NCBI GenBank assembly: GCA_012401045.1
Contig: GCA_012401045.1_4704.1
Origin: a phage
Length of the DNA: 64,000 bases
Direction: 5' to 3' (one strand)
In this document: piece after piece, positions 1,742 to 63,337 of the stretch
How the letters are laid out: each line of letters starts with the position of its first letter
How positions within the stretch are numbered: the stretch's first letter is position 1
Position numbers and translations under genes: made by a program
The notes under the pieces: generated by a model
The model's input: the letters and a program-made list of their open reading frames with translations, nothing else
Databases searched by the model: none
What the model was told of the DNA's origin: nothing

Positions 1742-1777
1742 CCTAGGTAATATAACCCTGAAATTTTTTTCAATATT
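1742..1777 (-). promoter_or_regulatory. Early-type promoter, copy 1
   Basis: The minus strand reads AATATTGAAAAAAATTTCAGGGTTATATTACCTAGG. The core TATATTACC (1754..1746) is 72 nt upstream of ATG 1674. It aligns position-for-position with the copies at 30706..30741 and 53410..53445. Confidence 0.7.
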
Positions 1778-3042: not shown

Positions 3043-3074
3043 CATCCTCCCAACCCGTAAGGGAAGGGAGGATG
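3043..3074. terminator. Stem-loop between convergent genes (bidirectional terminator candidate)
   Basis: CATCCTCCC (3043..3051) pairs with GGGAGGATG (3066..3074), embedded in a longer C-rich/G-rich inverted repeat. Confidence 0.6.
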
Positions 3075-3089
3075 GGGTGGTGGGTTATG

Positions 3090-5243
3090 TTACTCTGCGG
3101 TTTCTTGCTTCGGTAAATAACTTGCTGCGATGTCTTGGGCTAACAATGTATTGTTTTTATTCGAGATGAAAATACCATAACTTTCCATTAACGCGTAATA
3201 CGAACGCACGAGCGTAGAGATCAATCGACGAATATCCATACCTTGAATAAAGATATCAGGAAGCCCGGAGGCTTCGATCACCGGTAATGGTATCGTTAAG
3301 TTGCTTATCGTTTTCTTATCGTTACGTACAATCCAATCACGGAAACGTTGTTGTAACCCTTTATCCTCCCAGGAATCAATCCAATCGTTAAGAAGCGTTT
3401 TGTTCTTCGTCGCCAACGGCACACGAACCCCAACATAGGGTGGTTCAGGGCAATGGCCGTACGATTGAGCAAACACCTCTTCCCACATATCGTAAGACTG
3501 TTTCGTTACTGCAACATGCGGTTTCACTTTAACACGCGTTAAGAAATCAGGATCACCACGTTTCATAGACTCAACGATTTCGTTTTCTAACGAGATAATA
3601 TCGTCAAGAACCAATCGAATGCTGATCTTCTCGTTACGTAACAGCTTATCCATGATACCACACATCATGCGTTCAACACGTTTGACGATCATTTTTGGTG
3701 CTGACGCATCACGCATAACCGGACCTTTCAATTCCAGCTTCGGTGGATTGATAGGAACCCCCTCACGCATGGTCATGTAACCGTAATAGTTTTTACCCAT
3801 CGAGGTTAACGACAGAATCAAGAACATATATTCGTTCTTCATTTCCATCACGTACATATGCTCTTTCGCCACACCGATATTACCAGAACACATCGCCATC
3901 AGATGAACCGTAATCTGCGTAACCAGATAGATAAGCGTGTTTGCTAAGCGCGTCGAAACTGGATTGATCTCCATATTTCCAAATCGCCACTGAACCCACT
4001 CCTGGCAGGTAAACACCGTCGAGTCGGTATCAGACAACACACCCACTTCACGGATTGCTGATGGGAAAGCATAAACACCAGCCGGTTGGTTCTCGGTACG
4101 CCAGAACGCCATAATCAAATCAGCATAGCTTTGAATACGCTGTAGCATTAATTTTGTCGTTGCTGCAGTAAGACGATAACCAAGCTCATTTCCTTTTTCT
4201 AGCGCTACGTAAATCGCTTCCCCATTCAAGAACTCCGTACATTGTGCTGTAATCCAAGCGACCGTGTTGTTATCCATGGAAGCAATAATGGCTTTAGCCT
4301 CTTCCATCGTTTCAACAGGTTCGGATGCCAGCTCGCATAACGAATCAAGAAAATCTCGAACAAATTCAGGATTAAGCTCACGTAACGAGTACAGGTTATT
4401 GCTGTACATGTAGCAGGCACGTTCCAACGGTGTTAAACCAGTAATTAACTCCCGGATAGTCAGTTCTTTCTCTGGGTCGAAAGTATATCGATGCAAGCAT
4501 TTCGATACGTTAGCCCAAACCTCTTCCGGCGTAGGGTAATGTAGTTTGTATTTTACCATTACCTGTTCAATGGCTTTACGATCGCTGTTGCGGACAATAC
4601 TCACGATGTTTTCAATTGCGATATCACAATCGTAATAATGGAAATTGCCCGCAAGGAAGCGTTCGTTGTTCGCATTGGCTGAACCTGAAGCACAGCGACA
4701 CGTTGTCGTTAAACTTGGATGCGCAATTGGATTATAAAAAGGGTTAAACTTGGACGCCTGGGTTCCTGACAAACTGTTGTTATCTAACTTGGTGTTGGTT
4801 TGTCGTTTATCGTGTAACTCAGCTTCATCTTTACGTCCGTGTGCTTGCGCTATCGACATTTGTTTCTTTTGTTTCTTACGCAACTTACCGTTTTCAACCG
4901 CAAAGTCGCTTAGCACACTGGAACGTGTTTCACGTGGATAACAGTTAGCCCACACCGGCGTGATAATTAAATTATTTTCTTTAATATCATTGAAGTATTG
5001 GCTGAACTTGATGACTTCTTTTTCTCGATTTCCTTCGGTGCGCTGTGTTAATACAAGGCAGTCGGGATCAACCATCCCGTATTTTCCACCAGGACGAACC
5101 GTATCAAGGACAAACTGCAACGCTTCCTGCTGTGATATCCCACGCATGCGCATTAAGAACAGGGTATAATCCTGTACCGCTTCTTTGGTCATATCCAACG
5201 TACGGCCATATCCGTTTTCATCGTAAAAGAACGGATTTTCCAT
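3090..5243 (-). CDS. Large conserved-looking protein with PolB-like palm motifs (possible divergent family-B DNA polymerase catalytic fragment lacking an exonuclease domain)
   Basis: 717 aa with SD GGAGG before the ATG. GVLSDTDSTVF (DTDS at 4031..4020) resembles PolB motif C (YGDTDS). GKNYYGYMTMREG lies 78 aa later and resembles the KKRYA (KxY) motif at PolB-like spacing. Motifs A and B are not convincingly found. Confidence 0.4.
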   Translation of the reverse strand: MENPFFYDENGYGRTLDMTKEAVQDYTLFLMRMRGISQQEALQFVLDTVRPGGKYGMVDPDCLVLTQRTEGNREKEVIKFSQYFNDIKENNLIITPVWANCYPRETRSSVLSDFAVENGKLRKKQKKQMSIAQAHGRKDEAELHDKRQTNTKLDNNSLSGTQASKFNPFYNPIAHPSLTTTCRCASGSANANNERFLAGNFHYYDCDIAIENIVSIVRNSDRKAIEQVMVKYKLHYPTPEEVWANVSKCLHRYTFDPEKELTIRELITGLTPLERACYMYSNNLYSLRELNPEFVRDFLDSLCELASEPVETMEEAKAIIASMDNNTVAWITAQCTEFLNGEAIYVALEKGNELGYRLTAATTKLMLQRIQSYADLIMAFWRTENQPAGVYAFPSAIREVGVLSDTDSTVFTCQEWVQWRFGNMEINPVSTRLANTLIYLVTQITVHLMAMCSGNIGVAKEHMYVMEMKNEYMFLILSLTSMGKNYYGYMTMREGVPINPPKLELKGPVMRDASAPKMIVKRVERMMCGIMDKLLRNEKISIRLVLDDIISLENEIVESMKRGDPDFLTRVKVKPHVAVTKQSYDMWEEVFAQSYGHCPEPPYVGVRVPLATKNKTLLNDWIDSWEDKGLQQRFRDWIVRNDKKTISNLTIPLPVIEASGLPDIFIQGMDIRRLISTLVRSYYALMESYGIFISNKNNTLLAQDIAASYLPKQETAE

Positions 5244-5308
5244 AAATCCTCCAAAAGTTATTTAGTCTGTCTACATCATCTCGTATATCTGTTAAAAAAG
5301 AAGGACGG

Positions 5309-5346
5309 CATAAAAAAGAACCGATCCAGCCGAAGCCAGATCGGTT
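5309..5346 (-). terminator. Rho-independent terminator with UUCG loop, followed by TTTTTTATGCCGT
   Basis: AACCGATC (5319..5326) pairs with GATCGGTT (5339..5346). On the minus strand the hairpin is followed by CTTTTTTATGCCGT (TATG at 5312..5309). Confidence 0.75.
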
Positions 5347-8928: not shown

Positions 8929-8986
8929 ACTCTTTTCCTAAGTCCCCATTGTTTATACACACGATATCTGGGAATAGTTAAAATAT

Positions 8987-8994
8987 ACGGCGTA
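8987..8994 (-). promoter_or_regulatory. TACGCCGTATAT motif upstream of gene 7951..8928
   Basis: The minus strand reads TTTTACGCCGTATATTTTAAC. The same 12-mer TACGCCGTATAT recurs at 31554..31565 (octamer core at 31558..31565). Confidence 0.35.
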
Positions 8995-9340: not shown

Positions 9341-9352
9341 GCTTTCTCCTAC

Positions 9353-9384
9353 ACGGCATAAAAGCCTGCCCCGAAGGACAGGCT
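9353..9384 (-). terminator. Terminator with UUCG loop, followed by TTTTATGCCGT
   Basis: The minus strand reads AGCCTGTCCTTCGGGGCAGGCT TTTATGCCGT. TATG (9360..9357) is 18 nt before ATG 9340. Confidence 0.75.
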
Positions 9385-9393
9385 CGATAGAAC

Positions 9394-10676: not shown

Positions 10677-11519
10677 ATGGGTGCTATTGACTACAGTGTA
10701 GATCGTATCTGTCGTACAATACCGGCAGATATCCTACAGTATTGCTATATCGATCGTTACGACTGGCGTAATCGCTATCCTCGTTCCGTAGAAGACATCA
10801 TTACCGATTGGGTAATCCGTAAACGGGTTATCGGCGACATCGATATCTACGGGGGACTACAAACCGTTATTCCCCTTGATGATGCAGGTGTCACAATCGA
10901 AGAAGTCACCATTAACTGTTATGTTTTCCACATTCCGTTGGAAGCCACACAGGGACGTTATATCACGTCCGCATTATCCATTATTTCAGGGAGCGTGAAC
11001 AACTACGGAATAAACTATAACGGGCAATGGGGCGCTTTCAACCAAACCCAATTTCAACGTCAGCTTTGTGGGTGGAACCCCGCAAGCAACACGTTACAGC
11101 AAGGGATGAACGCGTTCGGTCCCATGAACGTTCTTAGTACAGCCAACGTTGATATCATCGCCCCTAACACCATCATGGTGAACAACGTCACGCCTGTACA
11201 ATTTCCCCTGAGCCTACGCTGTTTCCTTGCCCACGATCCGGAACTTACCAACCTCAGCATGGAGGTTTGGAACGACTTCTACAAACTCTGTTTATACGCC
11301 ACGCAAAGTGACATCTACAACAGAACCGTTATCCGTCTCGATAGAGGTGTTACAGCACAAGGACAAGAAGTCGGTGCATTCAAGGAATACATCGATCGCT
11401 TTGCTGATGCTGAAAACACATATCAGGAATTCCTGAACGAAACGTGGGCAGGCGTTGCTGCCTGGAACGATCCGCAAACTAAACGTCGCGCCATTCGACT
11501 ACAAACCGGTTACTTCTGA
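10677..11519 (+). CDS. Hypothetical protein (280 aa)
   Basis: Clean ORF preceded by AAAGGGG. No motif recognised. Confidence 0.75.
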   Translation: MGAIDYSVDRICRTIPADILQYCYIDRYDWRNRYPRSVEDIITDWVIRKRVIGDIDIYGGLQTVIPLDDAGVTIEEVTINCYVFHIPLEATQGRYITSALSIISGSVNNYGINYNGQWGAFNQTQFQRQLCGWNPASNTLQQGMNAFGPMNVLSTANVDIIAPNTIMVNNVTPVQFPLSLRCFLAHDPELTNLSMEVWNDFYKLCLYATQSDIYNRTVIRLDRGVTAQGQEVGAFKEYIDRFADAENTYQEFLNETWAGVAAWNDPQTKRRAIRLQTGYF

Positions 11520-12046
11520 TTAACGACAGCTTCCTCCCTCGGTGTTTTCGAGGGAGGTATTTGCCGTTTAAACACTTTCAGCACGTTCGCAAATTCAGCG
11601 GCAATAATACAGGCCGAGGTTGATAGCTTATTACTGAAAATGAGATCGTCCGGTAAACAATCGAACTGAATACCGTATTGCGTCTTTGTCTCATCAACGA
11701 TCAATGACGGTGTCGATCTTGTCTTCGCGATGTCGGTGATATACAAACGTAGAAATAATTCACCGTCTTCGCTATCCATAAAACGATAGGCGTTACCAGA
11801 AAACGCAACACATGGCGTAACGATAAATTGAACACGATCGTCGGTCGGATGGATATTTAACCAACGTTCGATATCATTACTACTCACATTTCGCATATTT
11901 ACTACGGTAAAAGCAAATAGCGTATCGTGATGTTTGGAATAATGCAGCACGTACGCCGCACCTTTCTTTTTGTGAATCCCTTCAATGTATTCTATTGTCG
12001 TATAGCCGGATTTATATAGCTTTACTTGCGGTTTATCACTCATCAT
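11510..12046 (-). CDS. Hypothetical protein (178 aa; start at ATGA overlap)
   Basis: MMSDKPQV starts at 12046 and overlaps the TGA of the upstream gene. The track's longer N-terminus lies inside that gene. Confidence 0.65.
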   Translation of the reverse strand: MMSDKPQVKLYKSGYTTIEYIEGIHKKKGAAYVLHYSKHHDTLFAFTVVNMRNVSSNDIERWLNIHPTDDRVQFIVTPCVAFSGNAYRFMDSEDGELFLRLYITDIAKTRSTPSLIVDETKTQYGIQFDCLPDDLIFSNKLSTSACIIAAEFANVLKVFKRQIPPSKTPREEAVVNQK

Positions 12047-14633: not shown

Positions 14634-14837
14634 TAAAAGAGGTTATGTTTTACGTATTGTTAATAACGTATTCTTATCTCTATTAAGTTATGTTCTATCT
14701 AAAGATAGTAAACAGATATAATGCTCCCCACCTCCCCATTCTCCCAAGTAATACTGGCCTACCGGCTCTCTCCTTTTTAAGGGAGAGAGTAAGCATTCAG
14801 TATTGCTCAAATGAATAAGCAAAACAGTATAAACTTA

Positions 14838-14861
14838 CCGTCTCGAGTTATCTCGAGACGG
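14838..14861 (-). terminator. Perfect 10-bp stem-loop after gene 14891..15244
   Basis: CCGTCTCGAG ttat CTCGAGACGG. The minus-strand downstream tract is GTAAGTTTATACTGTTTTG. TACGCCGT overlaps the 5' arm on the minus strand (14865..14858). Confidence 0.5.
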
Positions 14862-14890
14862 CGTAGTAGTATCTGTTTATCTCTTTTATG

Positions 14891-17744: not shown

Positions 17745-17876
17745 TTACTGACGTTGGTTATTATTTGAAGCATAGGGCTTCACCCAGGAGTACCATCCCT
17801 TTAAGTCGTTTATCCTCTCCTGGTTAACTGTCGTTCTCTCACAGTGCTCGACAGACCAAAAATGCTCAGGCCTCAT
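17745..17876 (-). CDS. Possible small protein (43 aa)
   Basis: An internal ATG of track ORF 17745..18011 is preceded by AGAGGAGG. The longer version overlaps gene 17920..18228. Confidence 0.3.
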   Translation of the reverse strand: MRPEHFWSVEHCERTTVNQERINDLKGWYSWVKPYASNNNQRQ

Positions 17877-17919
17877 AGCCTCCTCTGGGAATGGAACCCA
17901 GAGGAGGACTATGTTTGCC

Positions 17920-20545: not shown

Positions 20546-20557
20546 ATAAACTCCTCC

Positions 20558-25870: not shown

Positions 25871-25878
25871 ACGGCATA
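25871..25878 (-). promoter_or_regulatory. TATGCCGT motif upstream of 24907..25854
   Basis: The minus strand reads CTTATATGCCGTAATAAAGGAATTACATATG. Confidence 0.4.
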
Positions 25879-29002: not shown

Positions 29003-29039
29003 CCTTCCTTCCCCGGCCTTGACGGCTAGGGAAGGAAGG
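29003..29039. terminator. Bidirectional terminator
   Basis: CCTTCCTTCCC (29003..29013) pairs with GGGAAGGAAGG (29029..29039). It is flanked by a run of A residues upstream and TTTATGGTTTATTTA downstream. Confidence 0.8.
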
Positions 29040-29051
29040 TTTATGGTTTAT

Positions 29052-30036: not shown

Positions 30037-30077
30037 TGACATAACCACCACCGCAACCCCATACAGGGCTACGGTGG
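30037..30077 (-). terminator. Terminator after the 159-aa gene, followed by TTATGTCA
   Basis: CCACCG (30048..30053) pairs with CGGTGG (30072..30077), with an inner CCC/GGG stem. The minus-strand downstream tract is TGGTTATGTCAAGGTTTTATTTTTA. Confidence 0.55.
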
Positions 30078-30107
30078 GGTCATACAGAGAGACGTGTTAA
30101 GTTACAA

Positions 30108-30705: not shown

Positions 30706-30741
30706 GTTAGGTAATATAGACCTCAACTTTTTTCCAATAAT
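30706..30741 (-). promoter_or_regulatory. Early-type promoter, copy 2
   Basis: The minus strand reads ATTATTGGAAAAAAGTTGAGGTCTATATTACCTAAC. The core (30718..30710) is 123 nt upstream of ATG 30587. The upstream half overlaps the stop of gene 30723..31523. Confidence 0.7.
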
Positions 30742-31523: not shown

Positions 31524-31557
31524 CTTTTAAATTCCTACTTAACAATAAAGTTCATAT

Positions 31558-31565
31558 ACGGCGTA
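31558..31565 (-). promoter_or_regulatory. TACGCCGTATAT motif 35 nt upstream of ATG 31523
   Basis: The minus strand reads CATACGCCGTATATGAAC. The 12-mer is shared with 8983..8994 (octamer core at 8987..8994). Confidence 0.35.
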
Positions 31566-31611: not shown

Positions 31612-31653
31612 ACGGCATAAAAAGTACCTCCTTACCCATGTGGGTAAGGAGGT
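31612..31653 (-). terminator. 13-bp terminator, followed by TTTTTATGCCGT
   Basis: ACCTCCTTACCCA tg TGGGTAAGGAGGT (31626..31653). On the minus strand this is followed by ACTTTTTATGCCGT (TATG at 31619..31616). Confidence 0.8.
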
Positions 31654-35661: not shown

Positions 35662-35894
35662 TACTGCGCTCCCTCCAACGCATTACTACCTACGGGTTCT
35701 TTGGTTTCCAGACGGCTGTTTAAGCGCGCAGCAACCGCATCTTCCAATCCCAACGGCATAACCTTTTTGTTCACGTCAGGATCGGCGGCATCATTACCAA
35801 CGGTTTGACGTACGACCTCAGCAACCAACGTTACCGCGTTCGTCAGCGCAACAAAGCTCGCTGCCCGAGCCGTGTTAAGTTGTTCTTGGTTCAT
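35661..35894 (-). CDS. Hypothetical small protein (77 aa)
   Basis: TAATG overlap with the downstream gene. Ala-rich. Confidence 0.6.
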   Translation of the reverse strand: MNQEQLNTARAASFVALTNAVTLVAEVVRQTVGNDAADPDVNKKVMPLGLEDAVAARLNSRLETKEPVGSNALEGAQ

Positions 35895-40345: not shown

Positions 40346-41992
40346 TTAGGCTCCACGAGGTCCCGTTAAGTTGCGTAATAGGAACGCAACCGTATCGTAA
40401 CCAATATCGATGTTGAATTTATTTTTACCACTTACCCAGAAAGCTCGCTTCTTGTGCGAGTTGGTAATTTCGTCAATAGCTTCCATGGAATAAAGAACGT
40501 TAACCGAGACCGTATCACCATCAAAGTCCCCACCAAGTCCGGCGAGGTATGGCGCAGGGACAATAGTCGTTTCTACGAACGAAGCATTAGGTAACCAGTC
40601 GGGGTATTCCCATGCGATAAATCGTTCATCCGTTATTGGTTCCCAGTTACTATCCAGTTCGGTTTTCGGTTTTGCGGCGACGGTTGTACGTGCGTAACAG
40701 GTTAACGGGATAACGGATTGCATACCTGATACCGGATAACGTGTTACCATCGCAGCCAGGTTATTCCAGTACTTATATCCGGCAATATAGATAAGCTCGG
40801 TGTAAGTAATGGGGTGAACATCCGCGCCAGGTTTATTCAACATCTCCGGGGGTAATTCACTCATGCCACGGAATAACCGAAACGAATCGTTGTTCACATA
40901 GACGAGGCAAAGATATCGTCCATTGACCATGATAGGCTCGTTACGCACGCCAGGATCGCTTAAGGTGTTCAGTAAACGTTCTATTCCGTCCCATGTTGTA
41001 AAGTCATCGATGGTGTCTGGATCAAGCGTGACGCGCTCACGTTCCATCGTTTCGGTATCAGTAAGTTCAACTTCTGTAACATCACGGACAAATATTTCCT
41101 GCAAAATACCGGTACGTAACGCATGTTGCGTTACTGGGAGAGCGGCTTTACTCATCTGGTATAACCCTAACTGAACCGCGGTACAGGAAGGCTGGTTAGG
41201 CGACCCTAATACCTCCGTTGTGGGGTTAATTGCCGAAATAACGTTACGGGTTGAGTTCCAAACGCGACGTGAACCAAACTTACCTTGGAAGATCCCTTTC
41301 TTACCCTGGAACATATCCAACAGTAAAGCGTAGATATCGTTGAATGTTCTCTGTAAGCTCCAGCGCTGGCCGTCGTAAACGGGATCGGAATAATCTTTTA
41401 ATCCATCAGGGACGGTGTTAGAAATTGCAAGGAAACGACGATACAACTCCGTGATTTCTTGCTCGCTTTCATACCCACCTTCTTTTACTTCTATTTCACG
41501 TAAGCCTGCAGGCAATACCAGTAAGTGACGGGTCATCGCTTTGAACATGTTCTCTTCGACAACTTTAATTCGTAGCTCTCGTTGAGCTGAACCCGTTGAA
41601 ACGAACTTGATATCCGCGACGTGTTGTGCAAAGAACCCGTATCCTGTTTGTCCTGTTAATGCATCAGACGCAACGAAGTCGCGTTGTTCGGGATCCCACC
41701 GAGCGTACGCCTTCCCCGACATGATATCGCCATAGAGGTGTTTTAATCGAATGAGACGGTCGTAAATGACAGGATGCAGGATTTCAACCTTGCATTCAAT
41801 CACCGCAAATCGACGGTCTCGATCTTCACTACCCGCACTACCAAAGATGGTGTAAGAATAGAAACCATCATCGTGGAAATTACCGGTGCTTGGGTCACGA
41901 ATGCTCATGCTCGTGATCTTGGGGAGAAAACGTAACTGCTGTTTATCGAGGTGTAAAATACTAATATTAAACGGCTCTCTGACTTTAGCCAT
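40346..41992 (-). CDS. Multisubunit RNAP beta' N-terminal fragment (contains the catalytic DFDGD loop)
   Basis: LAGLGGDFDGDTVSVNVL has DFDGD at 40528..40514, 55 aa before the stop. The start is chosen at MAKVREPF (ATG 41992, with AAGAGGAG upstream) rather than the track start at 42034. Confidence 0.8.
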   Translation of the reverse strand: MAKVREPFNISILHLDKQQLRFLPKITSMSIRDPSTGNFHDDGFYSYTIFGSAGSEDRDRRFAVIECKVEILHPVIYDRLIRLKHLYGDIMSGKAYARWDPEQRDFVASDALTGQTGYGFFAQHVADIKFVSTGSAQRELRIKVVEENMFKAMTRHLLVLPAGLREIEVKEGGYESEQEITELYRRFLAISNTVPDGLKDYSDPVYDGQRWSLQRTFNDIYALLLDMFQGKKGIFQGKFGSRRVWNSTRNVISAINPTTEVLGSPNQPSCTAVQLGLYQMSKAALPVTQHALRTGILQEIFVRDVTEVELTDTETMERERVTLDPDTIDDFTTWDGIERLLNTLSDPGVRNEPIMVNGRYLCLVYVNNDSFRLFRGMSELPPEMLNKPGADVHPITYTELIYIAGYKYWNNLAAMVTRYPVSGMQSVIPLTCYARTTVAAKPKTELDSNWEPITDERFIAWEYPDWLPNASFVETTIVPAPYLAGLGGDFDGDTVSVNVLYSMEAIDEITNSHKKRAFWVSGKNKFNIDIGYDTVAFLLRNLTGPRGA

Positions 41993-42237
41993 GGAGACAC
42001 TCCTCTTTACCACCACCGGCTGCGGCGGTATCATCTGAACACACGAGAGACGTAATGGGTGATGGCGTCACCCATCGCTTCCTTGCTTGAGGCGAGGAAG
42101 TTATTAGGTTACGTACCTGCCTGATTTTATCAGGTGGGCGATGTGTGAAGTTACGCTTCAACATTATCAATGCCGAAGGTAAACTTCGTGCATCACGTTC
42201 CAACGTAACATGGGAACGTATCGAACTGGAGGTATAC

Positions 42238-51094: not shown

Positions 51095-51107
51095 TATTCA
51101 CCGCATA

Positions 51108-51145
51108 AACCCCTCTCCCTTCCCTGATGGGTTGGGAGAGGGGTT
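51108..51145. terminator. 12-bp bidirectional terminator between convergent genes
   Basis: AACCCCTCTCCC (51108..51119) pairs with GGGAGAGGGGTT (51134..51145). Confidence 0.75.
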
Positions 51146-51148
51146 ATG

Positions 51149-52216
51149 TTAACCCAACGTCACCGTCGGTAAATCAGGATAAAGTTTCTTCAAGCCTGCC
51201 ATCGTGGTGGCAGTTGTATAATTCTTACCCATCGCAGCAAGAGATGCGTATTTCCTACTGCGGGAGAAAAGAGAATAGAACCCACTGGATGTTTCCATCC
51301 ACATCGTGAGGAGTTCTGCATCATTACCGTGATAGTTCGTTTTACTCCATCCTGGTTTAAACGCATCAGCAAAATCAATTAAACGCGATGCTTCAGCGTC
51401 GTATTCTTTAAGGGTAATATACGATGGGATACGGTAGTTACGAAACAATAACGTAATGAGTTCAGGGACAACGCTACGGGCACGTTCAGCAGTAATAAGT
51501 TCGGTGATAACGGCAGCTGTACGGAAATCGCCGTTAAGGCCAACGCTGCTTAACGATTCCGCTAAAGTGGTTGCCATCGCCACTTTATCCTCCGCTGATC
51601 CAGAGTCATACAGACTACGTACGTCGATATAGTTGCCCGCTAATGCGGCTTGACGAATCAACGATGTGACAACCGTCCGGTTCGTCTTATAGTCGTTGTA
51701 GCTGAATTCGGTTCGCGTTTTCCCTTGATCGTCGAGATACCGATCAACAATCGTCGACAGTTTATAATACTCGTCGCCAGACATCAGACTATCGAGAAGC
51801 TTAACGTTTCCATCTTTATCAATAAGCTTCCCTAACGCACCATTGGATTGCTGGTTAATGGTACTGTAAATCTGGTCTTTTACTTGCGATAGAATGTTAT
51901 CGGTTGACGATATATTCAGGCCAGTAACATCTTTGATCTTATTCATCAACGCGTTTTCATTCAGGGAGATTTTGCCTCCGCTGATATCGATGAAAGAATT
52001 AAGATCGCTTATGGAAATCAGGTTTCCTGTTAACGCCGATAATGTACTATTGATACTGTTCGTAATACTGCTGCGAAAACTGGTTAACGCATCCGCCGCT
52101 GAAACAGCGGTACCGCTAACCGCTTTAAGGAGCGTATCACGCCCTGTCGAAAAATCGCTGGTGATGGTTTTGATCTTGGACGTATCTATACTCGGCAGTT
52201 TGTCGTAAAGACTCAT
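51149..52216 (-). CDS. Hypothetical protein (355 aa; start at MSLYDKLPS)
   Basis: AGGAGG lies 6 nt upstream of ATG 52216. The track's extra 17 aa (MWVGFMPYFFFLF...) fall in the U-rich leader. Confidence 0.7.
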   Translation of the reverse strand: MSLYDKLPSIDTSKIKTITSDFSTGRDTLLKAVSGTAVSAADALTSFRSSITNSINSTLSALTGNLISISDLNSFIDISGGKISLNENALMNKIKDVTGLNISSTDNILSQVKDQIYSTINQQSNGALGKLIDKDGNVKLLDSLMSGDEYYKLSTIVDRYLDDQGKTRTEFSYNDYKTNRTVVTSLIRQAALAGNYIDVRSLYDSGSAEDKVAMATTLAESLSSVGLNGDFRTAAVITELITAERARSVVPELITLLFRNYRIPSYITLKEYDAEASRLIDFADAFKPGWSKTNYHGNDAELLTMWMETSSGFYSLFSRSRKYASLAAMGKNYTTATTMAGLKKLYPDLPTVTLG

Positions 52217-52245
52217 CACGTCCTCCTGAAAAAGAAAAAAGAAAT

Positions 52246-52282
52246 ACGGCATAAAGCCTACCCACACAATGGTGGGTAGGCT
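52246..52282 (-). terminator. 11-bp terminator, followed by TTTATGCCGT
   Basis: AGCCTACCCAC (52255..52265) pairs with GTGGGTAGGCT (52272..52282). The minus strand continues TTTATGCCGTATTTCTTTTTTC, and TATG (52253..52250) is ~35 nt before ATG 52216. Confidence 0.8.
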
Positions 52283-52298
52283 AAGATCAACATCGATG

Positions 52299-52811
52299 TT
52301 AAACTTCTTCGTTTTCTGAACCTAATGATTCAGCATCTGGATCGTCAACAGGAATGGTTGCATCAAAATACCGTTTCGTATGCGTGGTTGTATATCCTAC
52401 GCTATCTGTGATGGAAATCGTAAACGTGACTTCCCTTGCACGGATTAAGCGTAGTTTATTCATGAAGTTACGGAACGGCATCGATCCCCGATTCAACTCC
52501 TTAATGACGTTTCCCCGAATACTGGAAATGTCTTTATTCGTTTTATCAGGGTGTCGTTTCTTCACATCACGCATATGTCGGGTAATATACGAATTGAGCT
52601 GATTTGCGCCGATCCCTCTCTCCGTATAAATCTGCAACAGGAACTCCGTAAGGAAATCCTGTCTACCCGTAGGCGTCCAGAAATTGTTACCGTGATTGTA
52701 GTTAGTCGCTCGTCCTCGATTGCTTTGAGGATTTTCATCATCGCTTTCATCACGACGCTTAAGCGGATTAATGCGTGCGCGGAAAGAGACTTCATTATAT
52801 TTATTTGTCAT
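52299..52811 (-). CDS. Hypothetical basic protein (170 aa; start at MTNKYNEV)
   Basis: ATGA overlap with the upstream gene at 52808..52811. Second gene of the promoter-copy-3 unit. Confidence 0.65.
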   Translation of the reverse strand: MTNKYNEVSFRARINPLKRRDESDDENPQSNRGRATNYNHGNNFWTPTGRQDFLTEFLLQIYTERGIGANQLNSYITRHMRDVKKRHPDKTNKDISSIRGNVIKELNRGSMPFRNFMNKLRLIRAREVTFTISITDSVGYTTTHTKRYFDATIPVDDPDAESLGSENEEV

Positions 52812-53409: not shown

Positions 53410-53445
53410 TGAAGGTAATATAGTCCTGTTATTTTTTTCAATACG
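53410..53445 (-). promoter_or_regulatory. Early-type promoter, copy 3
   Basis: The minus strand reads CGTATTGAAAAAAATAACAGGACTATATTACCTTCA, with the core at 53422..53414. Confidence 0.7.
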
Positions 53446-59327: not shown

Positions 59328-59335
59328 CATAATAA

Positions 59336-59371
59336 CCCACCCTACTACCCCGTTAAGGGCGGTAGGGTGGG
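59336..59371. terminator. 10-bp stem-loop between convergent genes
   Basis: CCCACCCTAC (59336..59345) pairs with GTAGGGTGGG (59362..59371), with an inner CCC/GGG stem. Confidence 0.7.
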
Positions 59372-61996: not shown

Positions 61997-63337
61997 ATGA
62001 TTAGTATTTTTGGTTTTTATACGTACAAAGGGTACGCTAATAACCACCCAAAAACCACGGCGAAATTCGGTGAGTTCAGTCAGCACAGTGCTACGTTCAG
62101 TCGCGAAATCGGCATCTATACCAACACGGCGTACGCACGTACGACCTTATTAGTGTTGAATGCCGAAAACGAAGCTGGTGAAGCACAAACGCTGAATGAC
62201 GACACCGCAGGCCGCATTCTTCAGGTTGGTCAATGGTTGCTGGAAAAAGCCGCATCGGGCGAAATCCAGGACGACAGAGACCAGGTTATCGACTACCTAA
62301 AAGACGACTTCACAACGTATTTGGATTCTATCGACATCCCAACACCCACCACCGATGGCACAGTCTATCTACCGGCGTGGATCAGTTTCAAGATAACAGC
62401 CACCGGCGATGTTGTCAAGATTTGGTTGTCTGATAGCGTATTCCAAAGTCAATATCCAAAATACGAATATGAAGTCGTTCCCCCTGTTCCTAAGGATCAG
62501 TTAGATACCTTCTTCGAAGATCTGGCAACATTGAAGGAACTGGTTGACAGTCGAAGCAGCGAGAAACTGACCGAAGAAATCAACGAGGTGCGCGACCAAT
62601 TCCCAGACACACAATTGTGGACGAAAACCTATAAAGCGTACGATTACACCGACGATTCGAAATACATTAATACCGATTGGACGGTGATTATCTACGGTGC
62701 AGCAGGTAACAATATTGATAATATCAAGGAGTTCCTGCAAAACTGGATTCTTAGCAATAGCACACACGGACGTCCAGACTGGGAAATCGTTCTGCCGGAT
62801 CTTTTTATTCCGACGGAACACATCTTCATCCCGATCTGGAACCGCCACAGTGCTCCAGAAATGACCAATCAGGCACGTATCTATAGTCCTATCTTCGATG
62901 ATTCGTTGATGGATACCTACCTGAAAAACTTTGCTGATGGTTACGGCGAAACCGCCGAAGTCCGTAAGTCGCTTCAAGCGGTGCCGACGTTGTGGCGCTC
63001 GATCGGTTTCTTAAGTGTCGGTAACTCACGTAACCGAGACGGTAAACTTAAGTTCTACGATCGTTGGCCACAATACGCGCTCATCAGCACAACCAGTATC
63101 GACATTAACCGTATCGACGATGCGACACGTGAATTCATCACGTTCACTTACGAAATGCTGAAACTGGCGGAATCGCTCACTGAAGACGACCCAGTACCGT
63201 TGGGTTATAGTCGTGTTACACGTGGTAGCAATAGCTTCTTAGCGAAAAGCCACAACGATGTTCAGTATCTCTTCTTAACAAAAGAAGCGTTCCTGAAGAA
63301 AATGCCGGATGATGCCGACACGCCTGTTGGAGGTTGA
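61997..63337 (+). CDS. Hypothetical protein (446 aa; start at MISIFGFY)
   Basis: GAGGA lies 7 nt upstream of ATG 61997. The track start at 61961 has no SD. Confidence 0.7.
   Translation: MISIFGFYTYKGYANNHPKTTAKFGEFSQHSATFSREIGIYTNTAYARTTLLVLNAENEAGEAQTLNDDTAGRILQVGQWLLEKAASGEIQDDRDQVIDYLKDDFTTYLDSIDIPTPTTDGTVYLPAWISFKITATGDVVKIWLSDSVFQSQYPKYEYEVVPPVPKDQLDTFFEDLATLKELVDSRSSEKLTEEINEVRDQFPDTQLWTKTYKAYDYTDDSKYINTDWTVIIYGAAGNNIDNIKEFLQNWILSNSTHGRPDWEIVLPDLFIPTEHIFIPIWNRHSAPEMTNQARIYSPIFDDSLMDTYLKNFADGYGETAEVRKSLQAVPTLWRSIGFLSVGNSRNRDGKLKFYDRWPQYALISTTSIDINRIDDATREFITFTYEMLKLAESLTEDDPVPLGYSRVTRGSNSFLAKSHNDVQYLFLTKEAFLKKMPDDADTPVGG

Follow-up and report, generated by a model that had tools for sequence, protein, structure and literature searches.

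Positions 52,246–52,282 of the phage DNA analysed here (a stretch of 64,000 nucleotides, referred to as the window) hold a minus-strand hairpin that runs straight into a short T-tract and the sequence ATGCCGT. The question raised by this locus is whether the conserved word behind the hairpin belongs to a signal that ends the upstream transcript, to one that starts the next, or to neither. An earlier note on this DNA had listed several such cassettes and read them as fused stop/restart punctuation between genes.

Origin of the window and reference genome

Over a 6-kb piece around the focal site, identity to Escherichia phage vB_EcoM_Goslar was 97.4%. This jumbo phage of E. coli forms a nucleus and belongs to the Chimalliviridae, and the counterpart of the window is approximately the last 64 kb of the Goslar record. 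The window gene map was obtained by carrying over the Goslar annotation by BLAST (coding fraction 94.6%, non-coding 5.35%), while genome-wide tests were conducted on the whole Goslar genome (247 annotated genes; non-coding share 7%, or 6.5% as applied to 8-mers). Intergenic hairpins of Goslar were scanned with TATG scored within −6 to +16 nt of the stem end, and a hairpin was termed terminator-oriented when the upstream gene lay on the same strand as the hairpin reading.

The window encodes the beta subunit of the virion RNA polymerase in a single uninterrupted ORF (40346–42034, minus strand), whereas in Goslar the gene is split by a group I intron with an HNH/NUMOD-type endonuclease ORF (Goslar 211817–213710), an intron presence/absence polymorphism between 97%-identical isolates.

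Hairpin and box cassettes in the window

The cassettes described as a hairpin followed by TTTATGCCGT proved to be real, and every coordinate in the earlier note checked out. Four minus-strand copies of the octamer TATGCCGT each stand directly after a strong hairpin (spacing 1–7 nt), with a GC-rich stem-loop directly upstream of the box at all four sites and a TTCG loop in both hairpins for which UUCG loops had been claimed. The hairpins (5346..5319, 9385..9362, 31653..31626 and 52282..52255) ranged from −17 to −23 kcal/mol, with fold z-scores of −4.8, −2.8, −6.4 and −4.7 in that order, and the word TTATGCCGT was present at 5313..5305, 9361..9353, 31620..31612 and 52254..52246 (minus strand). 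Distances from octamer to the next ATG, given earlier as 18–94 nt, measured 61, 12, 88 and 29 nt, so that the original range was approximately right. A fifth copy, noted before as lying upstream of ATG 25854 without a hairpin, indeed showed no fold signal (z +0.26). Further modules, absent from the earlier note, were found at 17874–17913, 29009–29045, 51100–51152 and 59328–59368, together with a variant at 11531–11567. The features are as follows (model scores refer to the phiKZ-trained model described below).

52255..52282, minus strand: focal hairpin AGCCTACCCAC-CATTGT-GTGGGTAGGCT, 11-bp stem, −20.7 kcal/mol, z −4.66
52246..52254, minus strand: focal box TTATGCCGT, directly 3' of the focal hairpin
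5305..5346, minus strand: hairpin 5346..5319 (TTCG loop), CTTTTT, then TATGCCGT at 5312..5305; z −4.81; tandem junction; next gene DNA polymerase (ATG 5243, gap 61 nt)
9353..9385, minus strand: hairpin 9385..9362 (TTCG loop), T, then TATGCCGT at 9360..9353; model 24.2 bits, E = 3.3e-4; tandem junction, ATG 9340 12 nt downstream
31612..31653, minus strand: hairpin 31653..31626, ACTTTT, then TATGCCGT at 31619..31612; z −6.42; after a head-maturation-protease-like gene, ATG 31523 88 nt on
30037..30084, minus strand: long hairpin, its 3' end merging into TTATGTCA (30044..30037); −32.4 kcal/mol; tandem junction; apical part inverted relative to Goslar, box the same
51100..51152, both strands: bidirectional module, hairpin 51112–51141 flanked by TTATGTTAA on the plus strand (51144–51152) and TTTATGCGGT on the minus strand (51109..51100); convergent junction; hairpin inverted relative to Goslar, flanks kept
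17874..17913, both strands: bidirectional hairpin, CTATG forming the stem 3' end on both strands; −28 to −29 kcal/mol; convergent junction
29009..29045, plus strand: hairpin 29009–29033, then TTTATGG (TATG at 29042); weak model match (13.7 bits, E = 0.2); after a plus-strand virion gene, convergent junction
59328..59368, minus strand: hairpin 59368..59339, then GGGTTATTATGTTAT (TATG 59331..59328); −18.4 kcal/mol; convergent junction
11531..11567, plus strand: variant, 9-bp CCTCCCTCG/CGAGGGAGG hairpin, then TATTTGCCGT (TTTG for TATG); model 16.3 bits, E = 0.04
25871..25878, minus strand: hairpin-less TATGCCGT; divergent junction, gap of 16 nt to ATG 25854 (virion-protein-like gene)

The focal hairpin, identical in Goslar, begins 17 nt past the stop codon (52301..52299) of a gp201-like gene, and the focal box lies 29 nt before ATG 52216 of a gp202-like gene, which is preceded by the Shine-Dalgarno (SD) sequence AGGAGG at 52227..52222. 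All hairpin modules of the window are 3' of a same-strand gene and are bidirectional at convergent junctions, the 25871..25878 copy having no hairpin. The variant module begins just past the stop codon (11517–11519) of a gp233-like gene and falls within the 3' end of a gp232-like gene, which converges on and overlaps the gp233-like gene; it would therefore be a terminator embedded in coding sequence.

Two other assignments were discarded. The TATG at 20546 is the terminase start codon, placed after an SD sequence within a stem, and was excluded as a module. The ATG of the box itself was rejected as a start codon: it lacks an SD sequence, and although the one at 52252 shares the reading frame of the gene that follows, the one at 9359 does not. 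At the focal site neither a sigma-70 promoter nor a classical terminator stood out, and a search of Rfam returned no family match anywhere in the window.

Despite 97% identity between the genomes, three or four of approximately 14 hairpins are palindrome flips: the inner hairpin part is reverse-complemented relative to Goslar at 29009–29033, 30040–30084, 51112–51141 and in the loop of 14833–14867, while the flanking TATG boxes are the same. A near-identical ~30-nt hairpin cassette, CCTCTCCCTTCCCTTACGGGTTGGGAGAGG with close variants, recurs at 3043–3074 and 51112–51141 of the window and at many intergenic sites, the Goslar loci including 4149, 49777, 63716, 93446, 174267, 224385 and 237245; it looks like a repeated terminator module. 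The word CCTTCCCT is intergenic in 20 of its 22 Goslar copies. Both ends of the Goslar record carry a hairpin followed by TATGCCGT, CAAGC and A17 (L004, 27–34; L001, 47279–47286), a position just past 64000 of the window, and the presence of the same cassette at both ends therefore indicates a short terminal overlap in the record. The last plus-strand gene of Goslar closes with a box terminator, and a poly-A run comes next.

Octamer counts and the TATG core

The minus strand of the window carries all six copies of TATGCCGT, compared with 1.88 predicted by shuffles, and five of them were non-coding (binomial estimate ~ 2.5e-6); the sixth, which the earlier note lacked, lies at 35760..35753 inside a small gene. 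Of the 21 copies in the complete Goslar genome, 12 were non-coding (p ~ 1e-9), ten of these coming after a hairpin. Ranked by non-coding enrichment, the octamer was approximately 13th of all Goslar 8-mers (p ~ 1e-9), and only poly-A/T and hairpin-stem words ranked above it. The comparison of coding and non-coding counts, which had been proposed as a check on the original reading, thus placed TATGCCGT predominantly in non-coding DNA. Given this concentration and the excess over shuffles, the cassettes are real and far beyond chance, and a chance origin was ruled out.

Variants of the form TACGCCGT had been counted as the same element, a view that did not survive the one-mismatch tests. The class TA[not T]GCCGT was non-coding in 3 of 22 copies (p = 0.2, no significant enrichment), and the classes that break TATG were not enriched in non-coding DNA (0 of 39 for TAT[not G]CCGT and 0 of 19 for T[not A]TGCCGT), for which reason these variants were rejected. 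The TACGCCGT copy at 14865..14858 sits within a hairpin stem and not after a hairpin, and another, missing from the earlier note (62133..62126), is within a gene. Changes in the CCGT part were tolerated, and GCCGT alone showed no non-coding enrichment. On these tests the TATG core is decisive and the CCGT extension is a softer preference.

The 10-mer TACGCCGTAT (followed by ATAT) occurs twice in non-coding DNA with no hairpin (8994..8985 and 31565..31556, minus strand), 34–58 nt before start codons. TAYGCCGTAT has three window copies against 0.42 expected, the class TA[not T]GCCGT not being enriched in non-coding DNA.

Association of the box with hairpins across Goslar

TATG was present near the stem end in 41 of 94 terminator-oriented Goslar hairpins (−6 to +16 nt), as compared with 6 of 56 antisense-read hairpins, 1 of 16 hairpins at divergent junctions and a rate of 11.5% in random intergenic windows. 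Among hairpins of −17 kcal/mol or stronger the rates were 61% versus 10%. An unbiased k-mer test, run on the 18-nt tails of strong terminator-oriented hairpins, gave TATG as the top 4-mer and TATGC as the top 5-mer, with TATG present in 25 of 56 tails (p = 8e-14) and ranking ahead of TTTT.

The resulting Goslar consensus was T-TATG-C-Y-G-T. The C, Y, G and T after TATG each exceeded the genome-wide context of TATG (p = 1e-5, 0.04, 4e-4 and 4e-3, respectively), and T was significantly preferred directly before it in hairpin tails. A relaxed search for TATG-Y-Y-GT added TATGCTGT and TATGTTGT copies behind Goslar hairpins, and 16–17 of the 20 intergenic copies of TATGYYGT came after a hairpin. 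Spacing between the stem end and the G of TATG was loose (approximately 4–12 nt).

Box-bearing hairpins were the strongest (mean −20.8 versus −16.3 kcal/mol). Their tails averaged 3.35 T in 8 positions, with a T-run of five or more in 7%, whereas a canonical terminator would have at least 5 T in 8 right after the stem; a generic terminator scan misses the focal hairpin. The cassette resembles a canonical intrinsic terminator in having a stable GC-rich stem-loop just past the gene, with release expected a few nucleotides after the stem; it differs in its tail, which reads UUUAUGCCGU and does not hold five or more U in eight, and in the specific conserved sequence behind the stem.

Comparison with phiKZ-type terminators

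A terminator motif has already been published for two relatives. In phiKZ, most intrinsic terminators share the consensus BCCYCCCCHWWDGGGRRGGBYTTATKYYGT, derived from 61 terminators at 3' ends mapped by ONT-cappable-seq (Putzeys et al. 2024, PMC10914365), a motif that we confirmed in a 50-kb piece of phiKZ. Phage 201phi2-1 has the same motif class, and eight of its terminators blocked transcription when assayed in the host bacterium with a terminator trap (PMC11512511). The TTAT-G-CC-GT of the window is an exact match to the 3' half of the phiKZ consensus, and Goslar has many stems of the CCCTCC/GGGAGG type.

A covariance model (R1) was trained on phiKZ terminator sites only, five in number since MAFFT mis-registered the 5' arms and just five sequences were in register. 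The focal site was its top match in the window (52283..52244, 28.7 bits, E = 2.2e-5), followed by 9385..9351 (E = 3.3e-4) and by 51098–51152 on both strands (E = 0.0086 and 0.019). No match was obtained at 5305 and a partial one only at 31612 (E = 0.73–9.8); both sites have longer T spacers. Applied to Goslar, the model gave 26 matches at E < 0.1, all intergenic or at gene edges, of which 24 were terminator-oriented and seven had no same-strand downstream gene. The terminator half of the earlier reading was well supported, both by the match to a motif defined at phiKZ 3' ends and by the recovery of window sites with a phiKZ-only model.

Shared with the phiKZ and 201phi2-1 terminators are a GC-rich hairpin, often with a CCYCCC 5' arm and a GGGRGG 3' arm, a following TTAT plus K-YY-GT, and a location after genes that becomes bidirectional at convergent junctions. 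Unlike in phiKZ, where TATGTTGT and TATGTCGT boxes dominate, the K position is nearly always filled by G in Goslar and the window, and the YY positions mostly by CC or CT (TATGCCGT, TATGCTGT), and the predicted hairpins are longer and more varied. Taken together, the cassette is probably the Goslar-lineage form of a conserved chimallivirus (phiKZ-type) terminator, with the box belonging to the stop signal; the assignment to this family is based on sequence and predicted structure and on the relatives phiKZ and 201phi2-1.

We also considered a selfish or repeated palindromic element of the REP/MITE kind, whose terminal inverted repeat would be TATGC/GCATA and which would play no specific part in transcription. 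Near-identical ~30-nt hairpin cassettes at many Goslar loci, several of them flanked as GCATAA...TTATGC, and hairpin orientations that flip between isolates would suit such an element. However, many box-bearing stems are unrelated to one another, the focal stem included; orientation follows the upstream gene in the great majority of model matches (24/26); the same layout recurs at orthologous loci (behind the major capsid gene, for example) in phages whose capsid identity is 26–35%; and the phiKZ motif coincides with mapped RNA 3' ends (PMC10914365). We consider this explanation very improbable.

Stop versus restart

The statement in the earlier note that TATG is the core of phiKZ late promoters was correct. 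TATG with a start at its G (+1) is required for initiation by the phiKZ non-virion RNA polymerase (nvRNAP), and promoter strength depends on the sequence downstream of TATG (Yakunina 2015, PMC4666361); a pocket in the beta-like subunit gp123 reads TATG base-specifically on the non-template strand (de Martin Garrido 2024/2026, PMC12809450). The same four bases form the core of the terminator box. On a second reading, the hairpin ends the upstream transcript, TATG serves as an nvRNAP late promoter (G = +1) for the next gene, and the box is conserved as a promoter. In addition to the phiKZ data, this reading can draw on the partial conservation of pocket residues in Goslar (7 of 14 exact), on the 12–88 nt that separate tandem boxes from the next ATG and leave space for a leader with an SD sequence, and on the hairpin-less TATGCCGT in a divergent promoter region (25878..25871). 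It can also draw on Bacillus jumbo phage AR9, another phage with RNA polymerases of its own, in which annotated early promoters lie 0–9 nt after strong hairpins (L012 10190–10228/10177–10189; 40357–40405/40414–40426), so that stop/restart layouts of the compact type proposed in the earlier note do exist in jumbo phages; the AR9 promoters, however, have a different, AT-rich consensus, and TATG was found in 0 of 24 AR9 hairpin tails.

The distribution of the box over gene junctions argues against its conservation as a promoter. At convergent junctions of Goslar, TATG followed 60% of the hairpins (12 of 20) and at tandem junctions 40% (29 of 73), a pattern at odds with that of a late promoter, which would be found upstream of the gene it serves, divergent regions included. 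Convergent junctions often carried the box on both strands in the form GCATAA-hairpin-TTATGC (51100–51152 and 17874–17913 in the window; 4149–4191 and 93443–93488 in Goslar), where promoters would give antisense RNA only. The extended box stood upstream of 1 of 40 Goslar genes at divergent junctions; plain TATG was found before 13 of the 40, which by our estimate is close to the intergenic background and represents no enrichment. The antisense side of hairpins in tandem Goslar arrays was likewise not enriched for TATG, as predicted for a directional stop element.

Comparison with phiKZ promoters, together with the tie of intergenic TATGYYGT to hairpins described above, points in the same direction. 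No hairpin accompanies p119L, the canonical late promoter of phiKZ, which is located between divergent genes, has AT-rich DNA upstream and shows TATG-TAGA, lacking the YYGT or C-Y-G-T extension; the box in the window, by contrast, keeps to hairpins and gene 3' ends. The phiKZ late-promoter logos (−50 to +1) have been described as short and weak; were late starts located mostly behind terminators, the hairpin should be visible in these logos.

The TATG box thus travels with the terminator rather than with the next gene and is best read as mainly a stop signal; its frequency at convergent junctions without a downstream gene suggests that it is conserved for stopping, not for starting. Of the proposed fused punctuation, the stop part is well supported, in agreement with the phiKZ motif, while restart as the reason for conservation is not supported, given the convergent boxes and the single divergent gene with an extended box. 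We regard conservation as a promoter as unlikely, although restart at TATG on tandem junctions is possible. The copy at 25878..25871 is the only one in a promoter-only context, which resembles that of p119L, and is the best candidate for a late promoter; approximately 0.1 chance copies of TATGCCGT are expected in the non-coding DNA of the window (an estimate), and a single chance copy is not unlikely.

A separate word, TATATTAC, occurs in non-coding DNA upstream of minus-strand genes at 1754..1747, 30718..30711 and 53422..53415, one copy being 73 nt before the chimallin start (1674), and ggcTATATTACtTa stands upstream of gp004, gp159, chimallin and gp200 in Goslar. The word has the look of a consensus for early promoters, those of the virion RNA polymerase, in this lineage.

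Distribution in other phages

The capsid protein of Goslar shares 35% or less identity with that of any other phage. TATG(C) nevertheless followed 50% of terminator-oriented hairpins in Erwinia phage pEa_SNUABM_54, 36% in Serratia phage Moabite, 34% in phiKZ and 29% in Ralstonia phage RSF1. It was scarce after such hairpins in Seoulvirus Lh1B (4%) and Vibrio phage pir03 (6%) and absent in the non-chimallivirus AR9 (0%), all three of which showed plain T-runs in their hairpin tails. To judge from these predicted hairpins, the layout of hairpin and box is deeply conserved; the use of plain T-runs by Lh1B and pir03 means that the box is not required by every chimallivirus polymerase.

Conservation across phages of different hosts suggests a phage-encoded reader. 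The hairpin and UAUGCCGU could act in read-through RNA as a processing site or as the binding site of a phage protein, fixing mature 3' or 5' ends, for instance in mRNA export or stability through RNA binders of the ChmC type. The presence of the box on the transcribed strand at every site and its retention in phages of different hosts are consistent with such an RNA signal, but ChmC eCLIP gave no sequence motif, with binding near start codons, the 201phi2-1 terminators were active in the uninfected host without phage proteins (PMC11512511), and neither complementarity of the box nor a second structure was predicted. An RNA signal of this kind seems quite improbable, and a terminator with its own box remains the preferred reading.

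Proposed mechanism

In the proposed terminator, a GC-rich hairpin in the RNA would be followed by a very short stretch of U and then by the conserved (T)TATG-C-Y-G-T box, and would be encountered by phage multisubunit RNA polymerases transcribing inside the protein nucleus. Since these polymerases are the phage's own and a classical intrinsic terminator would need more U than the tail behind the hairpin offers, the box probably does the job of the U-tract. It may represent a pause or release site at UUAU/G, with a pyrimidine at −1 and G at +1, the G-rich 3' stem arm falling at approximately −10 as in the consensus elemental pause, and the pause may come from renewed capture of non-template-strand TATG by the pocket of the beta-like subunit, as at late promoters.

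Comparable signals exist elsewhere. The class II signal of T7 RNA polymerase (ATCTGTT) is a sequence-specific pause and termination signal without a hairpin, the bacterial consensus elemental pause of multisubunit polymerases is G−10 Y−1 G+1, and the core recognition element is a non-template-strand sequence recognised by the beta subunit. The chimallivirus cassette would share with these a short conserved word near the release point, with UUAU/G supplying Y−1/G+1 and G-rich stem bases near −10, while the phiKZ nvRNAP resembles the polymerases that read the core recognition element in having a beta-lobe pocket for non-template bases. Unlike the T7 signal the cassette has a hairpin, and the pausing role of its box is putative.

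The pocket is incomplete in the transcribing phiKZ complex, and the structure paper contains no discussion of pausing or termination (PMC12809450); pause and pocket may nevertheless be combined in this way. In an alignment of only 25% identity between Goslar gp039, encoded outside the window, and phiKZ gp123, the pocket side chains that are kept exactly (7 of the 14 listed) are S144, F151, K158, K190, H331, S334 and Q466, with aromatic replacements at positions 185 and 406. F151 and H331 were invariant among the aligned gp123 homologues. K158 was kept only in the box-bearing lineages (five lineages versus two, in low-identity alignments), a co-occurrence with the box that is suggestive but was given no weight here.

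A more speculative version, which we regard as unlikely, is that one TATG pocket of the nvRNAP serves both ends of the transcription unit: initiation would start at the G, recapture of non-template TATG after the hairpin would stall the polymerase and complete termination, and at tandem junctions the released or stalled polymerase could re-initiate at the same G.

Significance

While the terminator motif as such is known from phiKZ (PMC10914365) and 201phi2-1 (PMC11512511), the literature searched held no description of it in Goslar, no report of its bias towards convergent junctions and no link between the TTATG of the terminator and the TATG of the promoter. For Goslar itself, published RNA-seq was found in a search for promoter or terminator maps, and no analysis of transcript ends was found.

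The present comparison extends the phiKZ terminator box to the very distant E. coli lineage and to Erwinia, Ralstonia and Serratia phages, and shows the box to be tied to hairpins even where no gene follows. If the box merely replaces the U-tract, the finding amounts to ordinary annotation. In practice, such cassettes could be used as insulating terminators when Goslar-type phages are engineered in E. coli. The core of the terminator box is also the core of the late promoter, and this identity, together with the tie to hairpins, offers a cheap in vitro test of sequence-specific termination by the polymerases of nucleus-forming jumbo phages. Should a single pocket indeed serve both ends, the hairpin and TATG would form a polymerase-encoded full stop and capital letter common to the Chimalliviridae, and would help to account for the specificity of a promoter core of only four bases, a long-standing puzzle.
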